Origin: Spirochaetia bacterium
GTDB taxonomy: Bacteria > Spirochaetota > Spirochaetia > DSM-2461
Reading direction: 5' to 3'
Assembly (NCBI GenBank): GCA_963666985.2
Contig: CAXXIA010000001.1
Location: 32,001-96,000 of the forward strand
Length of the DNA stretch: 64,000 bases
Shown: piece by piece, positions 19,960 to 24,033 of the stretch
Position numbering within the stretch: position 1 is the first letter of the stretch
Layout of the letters: each line of letters opens with the position of its first letter
Position numbers and translations under genes: made by a program
The notes under the pieces: model-generated
What the model was told of the DNA's origin: nothing
Databases searched by the model: none
The model's input: the letters and a program-made list of their open reading frames with translations, nothing else

Positions 19960-20316
19960 TTAAGAAACTCCAAGCTCTTCTTTGATAATTTTCTCAAATG
20001 TCGCCTTTGGAAGAGCTCCCGCAGCCATTTGAGGCTGCCCCTCAACGGGAATAAACAGAATGGAGGGAATGCTTTGGATACCGAAGGCTCCCGCGAGTTC
20101 CTGCTGTTCCTCGGTATTGACTTTCCAGACATTCAGTTTACCGGCATATTCTTCGGAAAGCTGTTCGATAATGGGCGCCACCATTTTACAGGGCCCGCAC
20201 CAGTCGGCGTAGAAGTCGATGATTCCGGGGATATCGCCTTTATAGTTCCATTCCTTTTCCGCTGTATAGTCGAAAACCTTTTCTTTGAACGTTTCGACGG
20301 TCAGATGTTCGGCCAT
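19960..20316 (-). CDS. trxA: Thioredoxin
   Basis: DFYADWCGPCK, SIP cis-proline loop. Confidence 0.95.
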   Translation of the reverse strand: MAEHLTVETFKEKVFDYTAEKEWNYKGDIPGIIDFYADWCGPCKMVAPIIEQLSEEYAGKLNVWKVNTEEQQELAGAFGIQSIPSILFIPVEGQPQMAAGALPKATFEKIIKEELGVS

Positions 20317-20444
20317 CCTAATCTCCTTCGGCGGTCATGCCGCGGTTTGTATATATAAAAATATATATAACGGATCGATTCGGCAAGACAAAGATCAACG
20401 GTTCTGCCGAAACCTGCCGCAATCCGACCGGCCGATAACGTTTT

Positions 20445-21743
20445 TCAAGAACCGAGAAAGGTTTTAATCGCCTCGGCCAGCGTTCGGTAGGTTCGGCGCC
20501 TTTTTTCGTCATCGTTCTCCAGCAGCGTCATGCGGAATCCGTGAAGTTCGCTGCAGAATCCGCTTAAAGGAACCGCGCAGATGCCGGTGGCGCCAAGAAG
20601 CCAGTAGACGAACCGTTTGTCGGGGGCGACTCCGGCGGCGATTTCCGCAACCTTTTTTTCCACGGCCGGAATGGGACAGGGCGGAAGCGGATGATTCACC
20701 GGAAGTTCCTTGTCGAATACGACCGTCAGGTAGAAGGCTCCGCTGGGTTTGATGCAGGTGATTCCCTGAACGCCTTTGAGGATGGAAATCACTTCATCCG
20801 CCCTGTCGGAGAACATGGCGGCGCGGCGTTCCAGATGCTTCGGATAACGGGGATCGGAATAAACCCGGGGAATGGCCAGTTGAGGCAATGTGGTGGAACA
20901 GACTTCCAGACGTTTGGCGTCCAGAAGACTGGTTATATAGCGCCGGAAGATATCGTCCTTGTTCTGATTGAAGATTTCCATCCAGCCGCAGCGGGCGCCC
21001 GGCCACGGAAATTCCTTGGAAATGCTTCTCATGGCTATTCCCGGGACATCTCCGATGACTTCGCTGAGCGCCGCGGTGTTGATTCCCGGATAAACAATGT
21101 TCGCATAGGTTTCGTCCGCCAGGACGAAAAGGTCGAACTTTCGGGCTATATCGACGATGCCTTCAAGGATGGGACGGGGATAAACCGCTCCGGTGGGATT
21201 GTCCGGGTTGATCAAAAGGATGCCCGCTATCGAGTCGTTATAGCGCGCTTTCATCCTGATGTCGTCCAAATCCGGAAGCCAGCCGTTGTTCGGGTCCAGC
21301 CGGTAGGTTAAATGCTCATAACCCGAATGAGAGGCCTCGGCCGAGGAAAGCGTGGAATAAGCGGGGGATGGGCCCAGAACGCGCGCCTCTCTTCTCAGAT
21401 GAGCGAACAGGGTGGATACGGCGTCTCCCAATCCGTTGAAGAACAGAATGTCGTCCTCGCCGATGGCGGTTCCTCCGCGCTTGTTGACAACCTCGGCCAG
21501 AAAAGAGCGGGTTTCGGCATCGCCCGCCGAAGCCGTGTAGCCGTATGTTATATCTTCGTTAACCAGTCCGGTCACGATTTCTTTAATCCAATCCGGCATC
21601 GGCTCGCCTTTATGGATGGGATCGCCGATATTCTCCAGGATGATTTCCGTGCCCATGGCCGCGAAAGTCTGCGCCGTTTTTACGATTTCCCGGATTTCAT
21701 AGCGGAGCTGACCCGCCCCCTCGTGCACGATGTCTCGTCTCAT
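20445..21743 (-). CDS. PLP-dependent class I/II aminotransferase, AlaA-like (probable alanine transaminase)
   Basis: YEIR...NIGDP N-terminus, INPDNPTGAVY, DETY, SISK...PGARCGW. AAGGAGG precedes ATG 21743. The upstream poly-Ala leader supports an alanine link. Confidence 0.8.
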   Translation of the reverse strand: MRRDIVHEGAGQLRYEIREIVKTAQTFAAMGTEIILENIGDPIHKGEPMPDWIKEIVTGLVNEDITYGYTASAGDAETRSFLAEVVNKRGGTAIGEDDILFFNGLGDAVSTLFAHLRREARVLGPSPAYSTLSSAEASHSGYEHLTYRLDPNNGWLPDLDDIRMKARYNDSIAGILLINPDNPTGAVYPRPILEGIVDIARKFDLFVLADETYANIVYPGINTAALSEVIGDVPGIAMRSISKEFPWPGARCGWMEIFNQNKDDIFRRYITSLLDAKRLEVCSTTLPQLAIPRVYSDPRYPKHLERRAAMFSDRADEVISILKGVQGITCIKPSGAFYLTVVFDKELPVNHPLPPCPIPAVEKKVAEIAAGVAPDKRFVYWLLGATGICAVPLSGFCSELHGFRMTLLENDDEKRRRTYRTLAEAIKTFLGS

Positions 21744-21800
21744 GTTTCCTTCCTTAAGATCCATGACCGCGGCCGTCCGATGCTTGCTTCGGCCGGGCAT

Positions 21801-21839
21801 AAAAAAAGACCGCGGCCGTCGGAACGTCGGCTACGGTCT
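21801..21839 (-). terminator. Attenuator terminator (3:4 stem plus U tract) upstream of the aminotransferase
   Basis: Minus strand agaccgtagccg-acgttccga-cggccgcggtct-tttttt. Confidence 0.85.
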
Positions 21840-21864
21840 GAATTTCTTAAAACTCACCGCAGCC

Positions 21865-21924
21865 CTATATGGCGGCCGCGGCGGCGGCGAATAGAGATCT
21901 TATAGATCGTTGATTCTCCGTCAT
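21865..21924 (-). CDS. Leader peptide MTENQRSIRSLFAAAAAAI (six tandem Ala codons)
   Basis: ATG ACG GAG AAT CAA CGA TCT ATA AGA TCT CTA TTC GCC GCC GCC GCG GCC GCC ATA TAG; directly after promoter TTGACC-17-TATGGT. Confidence 0.8.
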   Translation of the reverse strand: MTENQRSIRSLFAAAAAAI

Positions 21925-22100
21925 GTGCACACCATACAGGCGGGCGGCCTATGGGTCAAGAGAAAGGTGTGCCGGCCGATCCGATATTATTCAGATCCTC
22001 ATTTTCCGAATGAAACGGGAAATTGCGGGAATCGCCGCGTAAATCCGTAAAGCCGGGAATCGCGCGAAGCTCAAAGGAATCGGCTCAATGGGAAATAAAT

Positions 22101-22193
22101 AATGCAATCCCGCATTAAACGGTGATGCGGCAATGCATTAAAAATCTCTTTTACCGCCTTTAAACGGCTCTTTTGCTCAGGCACGTTTTTTGC
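22101..22193 (+). promoter_or_regulatory. Sigma54 (-24/-12) promoter with two upstream enhancer-like palindromes
   Basis: caGGCACgttttTTGCa (GG 22180-81, GC 22192-93); ATGC-N6-GCAT at 22101-22116 and 22124-22139. Confidence 0.8.
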
Positions 22194-22222
22194 ATTATGC
22201 GGCATGACCATAGGAGGAATCC

Positions 22223-23065
22223 ATGAGCGATCTGAAGACAAAGACGATTATCACTGTGGCGCCGACCGGTGCATGGCCCGGTAAAAAAGACAATCCGGCG
22301 ATTCCGTTGACTCCCGCGGAAATCGCCGATGATGTTGTTGCCTGCCGGAAATCCGGAGCGGCCGTTGCCCATCTGCATATGCGAAACGATGAGGGAAAGG
22401 GCAGTATGGACAAGGGCAAGTTCATCGAAACGGTAAAGCGAATCCGTGATCGGTGCGATATTGTACTGAATCTCACCACATCCGGCGATTTGGATGCCAC
22501 CGATGAAACACGTATGGCTCACTTCATCGAATTGAAGCCGGAATTCGCGTCATACGACTGCGGTTCAATGAACTGGCTGCACAGCAGTTTGTTCCTGAAT
22601 CATCCGAAATTTCTGGAAAACCTTGCCGTCGCGATGAAAGAGAACGGCGTAAAACCCGAAATAGAAGTTTTCGACGCGAGTTTTCTGTATAACGCCCTGT
22701 ATTACGAGAAGAAAGGATTTTTGCAGGCTCCGCTGCACTTTCAGTTTGTGCTCGGAGCGGCGGGCGGAATCGCCGCCACGGTAGAGAATCTGGTTTTCTT
22801 AAAGAGCCTGCTGCCTCCGGGGGCCACATGGTCCGCGTTCGGGATAGGACGCGGGCATCTGCCCATTTTGCTGACCACGATTGCCTTGGGCGGGCATGTC
22901 CGCGTGGGGATGGAAGATAACGTTCTTTACGCCAAAGACCGCTTGGCCTCATCCAACAGCGAATTTGTCGAACGAACGGTCCGAATCCTGGCCGAAGCGA
23001 ACAGAGAGCCCGCTACACCCGAGGAAGCCCGGGAAATCCTGGGCGTGAAGCGGAGAGCCTCATGA
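22223..23065 (+). CDS. Beta-keto acid cleavage enzyme (BKACE / Kce, DUF849)
   Basis: IITVAPTG, GAAVAHLHMR, KPEIEVFD, GGHVRVGMEDN. Confidence 0.92.
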   Translation: MSDLKTKTIITVAPTGAWPGKKDNPAIPLTPAEIADDVVACRKSGAAVAHLHMRNDEGKGSMDKGKFIETVKRIRDRCDIVLNLTTSGDLDATDETRMAHFIELKPEFASYDCGSMNWLHSSLFLNHPKFLENLAVAMKENGVKPEIEVFDASFLYNALYYEKKGFLQAPLHFQFVLGAAGGIAATVENLVFLKSLLPPGATWSAFGIGRGHLPILLTTIALGGHVRVGMEDNVLYAKDRLASSNSEFVERTVRILAEANREPATPEEAREILGVKRRAS

Positions 23066-24033
23066 TTCGCACGGTGGGTGTTCTCGGTGCGGGAACCATG
23101 GGGCACGGCATCGCCGAAGCCTTCGCGATTCACGGATATCCGGTCAATCTTTATGAACCGAATTCGGCGATTCTCGGGAGCGTGAAAGATGTTATCGGCG
23201 ACGAGCTCCGGCTTCTGGCCCGCGAAGAGGTGATTGAGGAATCGGCCGTTTCCGATATTTTGGATCGAATCACTCTCTTCGATAATCTTGAAGATGCACT
23301 CCGGGACAGGGATTACGTTATCGAAGCGGCGCCGGAACGCATCGAAATAAAGAAAGAACTTTTTAAGCGAATGGACGATGCTTGTCCGGCCGAATGCATT
23401 CTGGCCAGCAACACATCCAGTTTGAAGCTGATGGATATGGCCGAGGATCTTCCGGAAGAACGGAAGAAGAGAATGATGGTTTGTCATTGGTACAATCCCG
23501 GCCATATCATGCCCATCGCCGAGCTGTCGTTTTTCGGCAACATGCCGGAATCACTCTATAACGAAGTTCGGGATCTCTACCGTTCCATCGGAAAACAGCC
23601 GGTGAAGGTTCTGAAGGATATTCCCGGTCTTTTGGCCAACCGCATTCAGCAGGCCGTGGCTCGGGAAGTGTTCTCTCTGATTGAGATGGGAGCGGCATCT
23701 CCTGAAGACATCGACAAGGCTCTTATTTTCGGACCGGCATTTCGATATGCAACGTCCGGCCAGCTTGAAATCGCGGATTTCGGCGGTTTGGATATTTGGG
23801 CCGTTGTCGGCGACAACCTTCTGGCGGTTATGGACAACAGCCGCCGGGCGAATCAGCTCATTAAACGACAGGTAGAGGAGGGCAAACTCGGACTGAAAAG
23901 CGGAGAAGGTTTTTTCACCTATCCCGAGGATCGTAAAGCGGACATCCGGGAGCGTTATATGCTGAGACTTATCCATCAGCTTAAGGCTTCGGATTATTAT
24001 GTAACTTCTCATAATGAAAAGGAGAAATCATGA
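23062..24033 (+). CDS. 3-hydroxyacyl-CoA dehydrogenase family protein
   Basis: GAGTMG Rossmann motif, IEAAPE, LASNTSS, HWYNP, PGLLANRIQ. Confidence 0.9.
   Translation: MIRTVGVLGAGTMGHGIAEAFAIHGYPVNLYEPNSAILGSVKDVIGDELRLLAREEVIEESAVSDILDRITLFDNLEDALRDRDYVIEAAPERIEIKKELFKRMDDACPAECILASNTSSLKLMDMAEDLPEERKKRMMVCHWYNPGHIMPIAELSFFGNMPESLYNEVRDLYRSIGKQPVKVLKDIPGLLANRIQQAVAREVFSLIEMGAASPEDIDKALIFGPAFRYATSGQLEIADFGGLDIWAVVGDNLLAVMDNSRRANQLIKRQVEEGKLGLKSGEGFFTYPEDRKADIRERYMLRLIHQLKASDYYVTSHNEKEKS

Follow-up and report, generated by a model that had tools for sequence, protein, structure and literature searches.

The aminotransferase gene and its leader region

The window, by which we mean the whole 64,000-nt stretch of Spirochaetia DNA that was analysed, encodes an aminotransferase preceded by a short open reading frame (sORF) with a run of alanine codons and by four RNA segments able to pair in alternative ways. 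The features are as follows.

20445..21743, minus strand: PLP-dependent class I/II aminotransferase, 432 aa (NCBIfam NF005334/PRK06855)
21747..21755, minus strand: Shine-Dalgarno region AAGGAAGGA of the aminotransferase gene, ahead of ATG 21743
21765..21777, minus strand: second copy of GACGGCCGCGGTC, after the terminator and ahead of the Shine-Dalgarno region
21801..21838, minus strand: predicted intrinsic terminator GACCGTAGCCGACG / TTC / CGACGGCCGCGGTC, with hairpin 21838-21808 and T7 21807-21801
21817-21809, minus strand: segment 4 GGCCGCGGT, in the terminator hairpin, T7 after it
21829..21837, minus strand: segment 3 ACCGTAGCC, partner of segment 2 (antiterminator) or segment 4 (terminator)
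21856..21864, minus strand: segment 2 GGCTGCGGT, putative 5' strand of the antiterminator, directly after the stop codon; partner of segment 1 or 3
21865..21924, minus strand: leader sORF MTENQRSIRSLFAAAAAAI with its stop, ATG 21924 to TAG 21865, 19 codons
21871..21888, minus strand: six consecutive Ala codons, putatively regulatory (GCC GCC GCC GCG GCC GCC)
21882-21874, minus strand: segment 1 GCCGCGGCC, inside the Ala codons
21931..21959, minus strand: sigma-70-like promoter, TTGACC 21959-21954, 17-nt spacer, TATGGT 21936-21931

A preliminary description of this DNA had placed the promoter, the sORF with its Ala codons, the four segments with their U tract and a 13-nt copy of segment 4 ahead of the Shine-Dalgarno region, and all are found at those positions. 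On the minus strand the TATGGT box lies 6 nt from the sORF ATG, and no Shine-Dalgarno motif precedes that ATG, suggesting that the sORF is probably leaderless. Its promoter was the sole promoter-like site between 20000 and 23500 in a simple scan that misses weaker promoters, and with 2.3 such sites expected from shuffles the match by itself is not significant. None of the sites in that scan of 20000-23500, which weaker promoters escape, was a separate promoter for the aminotransferase gene.

We scanned the 4.86-Mb genome of the window by script for short ORFs with a run of at least four of any one residue followed by a hairpin and T5. Among the 21 candidates, the window sORF had the only run of six and the strongest hairpin (-17.1), and no second homo-residue leader of comparable quality was found in that genome.

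The aminotransferase matches NF005334/PRK06855 ('pyridoxal phosphate-dependent aminotransferase') end to end with 631 bits, as well as Pfam PF00155. Its start at ATG 21743 is fixed by the orthologue alignments, which begin at residue 1 and in which M1, R2 and R3 are invariant. The protein had been called AlaA-like, in agreement with its best solved relative, the E. coli glutamate-pyruvate aminotransferase AlaA (4cvq, 1.5e-37). The next is the Pyrococcus chain 1xi9 (2.7e-37), which we take to be an alanine aminotransferase; tyrosine aminotransferases are far weaker matches among solved structures. As the closest solved relative is AlaA, the enzyme is predicted to make alanine. The window's genome also encodes an alanine dehydrogenase and 15 other PF00155 matches. 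A thioredoxin gene lies 129 nt downstream of the aminotransferase gene, and upstream, in divergent orientation, are genes for a BKACE-family protein and a 3-hydroxyacyl-CoA dehydrogenase. The PRK06855 family is found across several phyla; as a term, PRK06855 was not found in the full-text literature. A near ESM Atlas cluster carries the automatic name 'alanine transaminase', which we record as a lead only.

Alternative structures in the leader RNA

The terminator sits 57 nt ahead of the aminotransferase start codon. RNAfold energies for the three hairpins are nearly equal, at -20.7 kcal/mol for 1:2, -19.3 kcal/mol for 2:3 and -19.1 kcal/mol for 3:4, and the 2:3 duplex alone reaches -18.4 kcal/mol (z = -4.8). 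The 2:3 antiterminator and the 3:4 terminator are mutually exclusive, segment 3 being common to both. Folded as a whole, the 191-nt leader is more stable than all 200 of 200 shuffles (z = -3.78). The 3:4 hairpin was not reported by a simple terminator scan, possibly because it contains one A.C mismatch. The Ala codons GCC GCG GCC hold the self-complementary motif CCGCGG, which recurs in segments 1-4. Directly 3' of the 1:2 hairpin is GAGUUUU, and the two together might form a pause site.

Read-through RNA would contain the second copy of GACGGCCGCGGTC as well, which can pair with segment 1 or 3; in the minimum free energy (MFE) structure of the full leader it is paired to the Ala codons. A comparable complement to the 3' arm of the terminator follows the terminator in 13 of 24 leaders.

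Ribosome positions were modelled on a transcript ending just beyond segment 3, as it would stand ahead of the synthesis of segment 4; the masked footprint began at the RNA 5' end and reached 13 nt beyond the first base of the codon in the A site. The 2:3 helix forms when that codon is any of Ala codons 1-5, is partial at Ala codon 6 and is absent at AUA or UAG, where segment 3 stays unpaired and free for segment 4. The earlier proposal that a stall on the Ala codons permits 2:3 pairing is thus borne out in this folding model. In equilibrium folding of the whole leader with the mask on Ala codons 1-3, the MFE structure still has 3:4, and ribosome-free RNA of segments 1-4 prefers 2:3 nested in 1:4 (-51.3 kcal/mol) over 1:2 plus 3:4. 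Masked equilibrium folding of the full leader is ambiguous because 2:3 and 3:4 are isoenergetic, so the attenuator model needs kinetic, co-transcriptional folding, as in classical attenuators.

Ala-run leaders precede orthologous genes in the Spirochaetia

An orthologue of the aminotransferase is encoded in 35 of 61 related genomes. We inspected the best 30 orthologue loci of these relatives, 29 of which had usable upstream DNA. In 19 of the 29 the upstream DNA carries an ORF that opens with ATG and includes an Ala run, followed by a GC hairpin and a T-run, as the preliminary description had anticipated for orthologous leaders. These 19 leaders, in which the T-run ends 15-64 nt ahead of the gene, come from the window's genus, from three more genera in the same family and from five further families in the class. 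Ten loci have no clear leader. Seven are from the same genus, five of them with a promoter directly before the gene and two with an abutting upstream gene; two are further loci, and the last has a degenerate sORF and a terminator.

A second set comprised 80 loci on named contigs, out of 583 confirmed relatives. Among these 80, an Ala-run leader was found in nine of the 12 spirochaete loci outside Leptospira (Treponema, Treponemataceae, Spirochaetaceae and Spirochaetia), seven with a called terminator and one lying on the same contig as L004 of the relatives. It was found in none of the 10 Leptospira or Leptospiraceae loci of the set, and no convincing leader was seen among its Planctomycetota or Bacteroidota-type loci. 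One Planctomycetota locus (L060) has an Ala-rich sORF without a terminator.

We also ran a covariance model of the leader, R1, on 151 genomes sampled evenly across the class. Matches with E <= 0.001 occurred in 46 genomes, many of them terminator look-alikes. Of the best 30 matches examined as loci, 18 have an Ala-run sORF, and in 15 of those 18 the downstream ORF is the same aminotransferase by BLASTP. In the other three (L118, L119 and L122) the downstream gene is unconfirmed, owing to a contig end or to another frame having been picked. Partial and antisense R1 matches were set aside as terminator look-alikes, as was a match in the window's own genome (G000:C1:657593-657684), a plain gene-end terminator after an ABC-transporter-like ORF with no leader. 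In each of the 37 Spirochaetia leaders that we analysed, a short ORF starting at ATG contains 3-8 Ala codons in succession, and a GC hairpin with a T-run is present. Rfam gave no relevant match in the window at E up to 10, and in 20 leader loci no match at gathering score except one tRNA.

The sORF start lies at a conserved distance from the promoter

The sORF is preceded, in 25 of 26 Spirochaetia leaders, by a -35 box of the TTGAC type, a spacer of 16-18 nt and a -10 box ending 4-10 nt before the ATG. The spacer is 17 nt in 20 of the 25, and the gap between the -10 box and the ATG is mostly 6-7 nt. The exception (L011) fails the filter, though by eye it reads TTGACA-17-TTAACT-7-ATG. A Shine-Dalgarno-like word occurs within the 13 nt scanned before the sORF ATG in only two of 25 leaders; the aminotransferase genes all have clear GGAG/AGGA motifs. 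The conserved spacing between the -10 box and the ATG implies a leaderless start, and the geometry proposed for the window extends to its relatives. The Ala run begins after 10-18 codons, mostly 12-16.

Antiterminator pairing among the leaders

Antiterminator pairing was tested in 37 Spirochaetia leaders, L118 being left out as it has no terminator within its contig. For each we took the best partner of the terminator 5' arm between the Ala run and that arm, and compared it with shuffles of the interval. The best duplex, of -13 to -26 kcal/mol, beats 95% of shuffles in 32 of the 37. In 34 of 37 leaders a gap of 0-13 nt separates the last Ala codon from the start of segment 2, and likewise in 34 of 37 segment 2 ends between -7 and +19 nt relative to the end of the stop codon. 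Segment 2 has 34 distinct sequences, and each complements the terminator arm of its own leader; examples of segment 2 and arm are GGCTGCGGT / ACCGTAGCC, GGAATCGC / GCGGTTCC, GGAGGATCGCGG / CCGCGATCCTCC and GGGACTCGCGG / CCGCGGTCCC.

The leaders come in two architectures. In the window type, represented by eight examples, the sORF stops immediately after the Ala run or one codon later, and segment 2 lies behind the stop codon. In the longer type the sORF continues for 7-10 codons, through segment 2, which explains its conserved '...GIAG' and '...EDRG' tails ahead of the stop. Pairing between segments 1 and 2 beats shuffles (p <= 0.05) only in the window, L004, L014, L033 and the Geomonas leader L103, and is not above shuffles in most leaders of the longer type. 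The 1:2 hairpin of the preliminary description therefore stands for leaders of the window type but not for most others.

Covariation was examined in a subgroup of 13 sequences. There the terminator has 97.9% of its cells paired (37-50% when slid) and two pairs changed on both sides, and the antiterminator has 91.6% paired (36-52% when slid) and no such pair; for the antiterminator a shuffle control gave no discrimination. The sequences of this subgroup are too alike for covariation to be informative. Support for the antiterminator comes from its diversity between lineages and not from a formal covariation test, and covariation within the subgroup is weak. The covarying stems that had been expected are thus found in part: diverse segment-2 sequences stay complementary to their arms from lineage to lineage, but pairs changed on both sides are few or absent among close relatives.

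The run is of alanine codons, and ilvB has sister leaders

Run statistics were collected for ATG-ORFs of at most 60 codons in 107 upstream regions of 330 nt, with dinucleotide shuffles as the control.

Ala run of at least 4: sense 30/107, antisense 3/107, shuffle mean 0.2
Ala run of at least 5: sense 22/107, antisense 1/107, shuffle mean 0

As related genomes are not independent, these counts show a pattern and not a probability. Runs of at least four of any other amino acid were absent from the 107 regions. The 202 codons in 37 Ala runs comprise 68 GCC, 61 GCA, 57 GCG and 16 GCT, and the tRNA-Ala genes of the window's genome have the anticodons UGC, GGC and CGC.

The R1 model also cross-matched four leaders in other genera in which the sORF is rich in Ile, Leu and Val and the layout is similar; MKRPVSGKSIISILSIIILLNKHTMRED and MTFVIISLISVLVIIIGASAPQGEIA are examples. 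All four have the sORF, segment 2 and the terminator, and a promoter-adjacent ATG is visible in three. All four precede ilvB, encoding the biosynthetic acetolactate synthase (TIGR00118); three of the ilvB ORFs are cut at the end of the locus, yet score above the TIGR00118 cut-off. In these leaders AT-rich codons fill the place of the Ala run, which argues against a run kept merely for GC pairing. A similar scaffold with another codon run and a matching pathway is, as far as these four leaders go, what amino-acid sensing predicts and a structural GC run does not. The ilvB gene of the window's own genome has no leader peptide.

Leaders in Desulfobacterota-type lineages

An Ala-rich sORF also precedes the orthologous gene in 14 of 26 loci titled as Desulfobacterota-type lineages, namely Geobacter, Geomonas, Geotalea, Desulfuromonadales, Desulfobacteraceae and Syntrophobacterales, plus one MAG labelled Dongiaceae; examples are MYTNNVTSRGTVHAAAAARHF and MITTVTASAARAITAAAFHAAGLPAAC. 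Most of these leaders have a hairpin and a T-run. The leaderless promoter geometry is absent from them, the Geobacter-type leaders being led by a Shine-Dalgarno motif. In a crude test, the antiterminator duplex was not significant in four of the five leaders tested, three of Geobacter type and Geomonas L103 (p 0.10-0.29). The Desulfobacterota-type leaders are probably analogous to those of the spirochaetes.

Discussion

Predicted from sequence, the locus combines an sORF, a run of codons cognate to the product of the gene behind it, an intrinsic terminator, an antiterminator exclusive with that terminator, and a geometry in which ribosome position selects between them. We interpret it as a transcription attenuator of the ribosome-mediated, leader-peptide kind whose signal is the availability of charged tRNA-Ala, with a probability of roughly 0.8. 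Most likely, it would turn the aminotransferase gene on when alanine is short. The earlier interpretation as an alanine-sensing attenuator is supported by the comparative analysis.

From the observed anatomy, conservation and geometry we infer a start of transcription, translation of the sORF, stalling and a regulatory outcome as follows. Given the promoter geometry, transcription would start at about the A of ATG 21924, yielding a leaderless mRNA onto which a ribosome would load at the 5' end. When alanine is plentiful, the ribosome would cross the six Ala codons to AUA-UAG and cover segment 2, which adjoins the stop codon. Segment 3 would then be free for segment 4, and the hairpin with U7 would end transcription at a point 57 nt short of the start codon. 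Under a shortage of Ala-tRNA, the ribosome would stall on the first Ala codons and mask segment 1, leaving segment 2 free to capture newly made segment 3. The terminator would be blocked, RNA polymerase would read into the gene, and the aminotransferase produced would make alanine.

The leader could instead sense general translation stress, with slowed ribosomes or antibiotics as the signal, in the manner of the whiB7 uORF, which according to the available part of PMC10274678 answers to many starvations and to ribosome-targeting drugs. Any stall in the first 17 codons would free segment 2, as such a sensor needs. However, only alanine forms runs, the N-terminal codons of the sORF are not conserved, the ilvB leaders of similar layout carry Ile/Leu/Val runs, and the nearest solved relatives of the regulated gene's product are alanine aminotransferases, so we regard a sensor not specific for alanine as unlikely. 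That the GCN repeat serves only as an RNA pairing segment, the sORF being untranslated and a protein, small molecule or sRNA making the decision, is suggested by the CCGCGG motif shared by the Ala codons and segments 1-4. It is a very unlikely explanation of an in-frame ATG whose spacing from a conserved promoter is kept in 25 of 26 leaders, of a stop codon at a fixed place relative to segment 2, of a free third codon position and of AT-rich Ile codons in the same place in the ilvB leaders; nor is there an Rfam match.

We give least credence to the nascent poly-Ala or the product peptide being the effector, as an arrest peptide or as a small protein that has a terminator of its own, with no part for tRNA charging. 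The sORF does have its own promoter and terminator, but outside the Ala run and the residues that segment 2 dictates the peptide is unconserved, its length and C-terminus differ between the two architectures, and the same aminotransferase follows in 15 of the 18 Ala-run R1 matches, with three unconfirmed. A leader peptide through which the ribosome reads charged tRNA-Ala is the reading that we favour.

Classical leader-peptide attenuators govern amino-acid operons, as with trpL, hisL, pheL, leuL, thrL and ilvL of E. coli. Like these, the spirochaete leaders have a leader ORF with a codon run for the pathway amino acid, an intrinsic terminator and an overlapping antiterminator, and ribosome position would decide between the two; the window leader also has the four-segment 1:2 / 2:3 / 3:4 layout. 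They differ in that alanine is the amino acid concerned, that the sORF lacks a Shine-Dalgarno motif and is apparently leaderless, that a spirochaete is the host, that a single aminotransferase gene is regulated, and that no Rfam leader family matches. Alanine specificity, coupling of an apparently leaderless sORF to an intrinsic terminator and the spirochaete host are the three points of difference from the classical systems, the modelling of which is treated in PMC1183508 (available part).

Closer parallels exist in mycobacteria. By the available text of PMC10274678, the whiB7 uORF-terminator-antiterminator, called an 'Ala leader' by its authors, is enriched in alanine codons and answers to alanine starvation; the uORF, of some length and mixed composition, responds to antibiotics as well as to many amino acids, and WhiB7 is a transcription factor that then induces the alanine aminotransferase gene aspC. 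On that account, both systems would use an attenuator with an alanine-codon uORF and have an alanine aminotransferase, here a predicted one, as the eventual target, but here the sORF is only 19 codons long, its Ala run is unbroken, and it lies directly in cis before the aminotransferase gene. An attenuator of the whiB7 type was considered and ruled out, as the downstream gene is an aminotransferase and the sORF is short with an uninterrupted run. The mycobacterial leaderless polycysteine sORFs, as described in the available part of 10.1101/834739, are first cistrons with consecutive codons of the sensed Cys, on which stalling ribosomes prevent the folding that hides the ribosome-binding site downstream, de-repressing a metabolic gene. 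Set beside that description, our leaders share the consecutive codons of the sensed amino acid, their promoter position would fit a leaderless first cistron, and stalling would likewise de-repress a metabolic gene; they differ in the use of Ala, in a hairpin with T7 lying 57 nt before the gene and in a Shine-Dalgarno region (AAGGAAGGA) outside segments 1-4.

In the full-text literature available without subscription, we found neither a cis-acting poly-Ala leader before an aminotransferase gene nor a leader-peptide attenuator from a spirochaete. The statement in the preliminary description that no alanine leader attenuator had been described is thus partly true only: it holds for direct action in cis, but an alanine-tuned uORF attenuator, that of whiB7, is in print (PMC10274678, available part).

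A broader reading, which we offer tentatively and hold to be possible rather than probable, is that the Spirochaetia have a modular family of leaderless attenuators built on one scaffold, in which a promoter is followed by a 5'-ATG, by 10-18 spacer codons and the codon run, by segment 2 located at the stop codon and by a terminator. Its specificity would be reprogrammed by swapping the run, with Ala before the PRK06855 aminotransferase and Ile/Leu/Val before ilvB, and the post-terminator element would add a further, undescribed layer on the read-through mRNA. Taken with the Ala-rich, Shine-Dalgarno-led leaders of Geobacter-type Desulfobacterota, direct alanine attenuation might then be a widespread overlooked regulon, and alanine synthesis might be assigned to an uncharacterised aminotransferase family.

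Alanine would be added to the amino acids for which a leader-peptide attenuator acts as a direct sensor in cis, the whiB7 circuit being indirect. The Spirochaetia would use ribosome-mediated attenuation in a form that appears leaderless and has an intrinsic terminator, and alanine synthesis is predicted for the uncharacterised PRK06855 aminotransferases. The codon-swapped ilvB leaders would provide a natural experiment on the evolution of attenuator specificity.

Leader hairpins and the post-terminator interval

In 24 leaders, we examined the interval that separates the terminator from the start of the gene. It holds a complement of the terminator 3' arm in 13 of them (p <= 0.05 against shuffles): the window and loci L004, L014, L017-L020, L022, L023, L027, L028, L061 and L063 from other genomes. 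The L020 stretch is the reverse complement of the entire terminator hairpin. Two elements of the window leader are:

21765-21777, minus strand: post-terminator stretch, a 13-nt copy of segment 4
21853-21888, minus strand: 1:2 hairpin (-20.7 kcal/mol) followed by GAGUUUU

The segment 4 copy pairs with the Ala codons in the minimum free energy fold. The 1:2 hairpin with its GAGUUUU is similar to the trp leader's pause hairpin, and the terminator filter also caught it, at T4.

Neighboring genes and genes elsewhere in the genome

Genes flanking the aminotransferase gene, and two genes elsewhere in the same genome (G000), are:

19960-20316, minus strand: thioredoxin, 129 nt downstream
22223-23065, plus strand: BKACE (beta-keto acid cleavage enzyme), upstream and divergent
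23062-24033, plus strand: 3-hydroxyacyl-CoA dehydrogenase, upstream and divergent
G000:C1:699412-701064, minus strand: ilvB, outside the window
G000:C2:3039903-3041009, minus strand: alanine dehydrogenase, outside the window, scoring above the TIGR00518 cut-off

As the thioredoxin gene lies on the same strand 129 nt away, its co-transcription with the aminotransferase gene is possible. The region upstream of ilvB has a promoter and an SD, and no leader peptide was found there.

Similar leaders in other genomes

Four cross-matches of the RNA model share the sORF, segment 2 and terminator layout of the Ala leaders:

L125:1501-1596, minus strand: ILV-type leader
L130:1501-1596, plus strand: ILV-type leader
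L133:1501-1588, minus strand: ILV-type leader
L139:1501-1584, plus strand: ILV-type leader

Their sORFs are rich in Ile, Leu and Val (e.g. MKRPVSGKSIISILSIIILLNKHTMRED and MTFVIISLISVLVIIIGASAPQGEIA), with a TTGACA promoter shortly 5' of the ATG in three, and ilvB, encoding the acetolactate synthase large subunit, lies downstream of all four. No description of a spirochaete ILV leader was found in the literature searched.

Model R1, the covariance model of the Ala-run leader, is partly driven by the terminator, as shown by its second match in the window's genome (G000:C1:657593-657684, minus strand, outside the window), an ordinary gene-end terminator, GGCGCGGTTCG..GAACCGCGTC with T7, 3' of an ABC-transporter-like ORF. 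It was rejected as a leader.

In genomes of Geobacter, Geomonas, Geotalea and Desulfobacteraceae type, the orthologous aminotransferase gene also has an Ala-rich sORF in front of it:

L080, L082, L087, L090, L095, L097-L100, L103-L106 and L108: Ala-rich sORF 5' of the match at 1201 (L098, 754)

Most are accompanied by a hairpin and T-run; a promoter-to-ATG check found no leaderless promoter geometry in this group. Three of these sORFs come from named isolates (Geomonas paludis, Geomonas silvestris and Geotalea sp. SG265).

Closer to the window, inspection of upstream DNA in the same-genus relatives L002, L003, L005, L006 and L007 revealed no leader at the aminotransferase gene. An upstream ORF is followed by a promoter-like box, GTATTGACCCC, 30-45 nt upstream of and directly before the gene. 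Given its absence from these five relatives, the attenuator has been gained or lost inside the window's genus.
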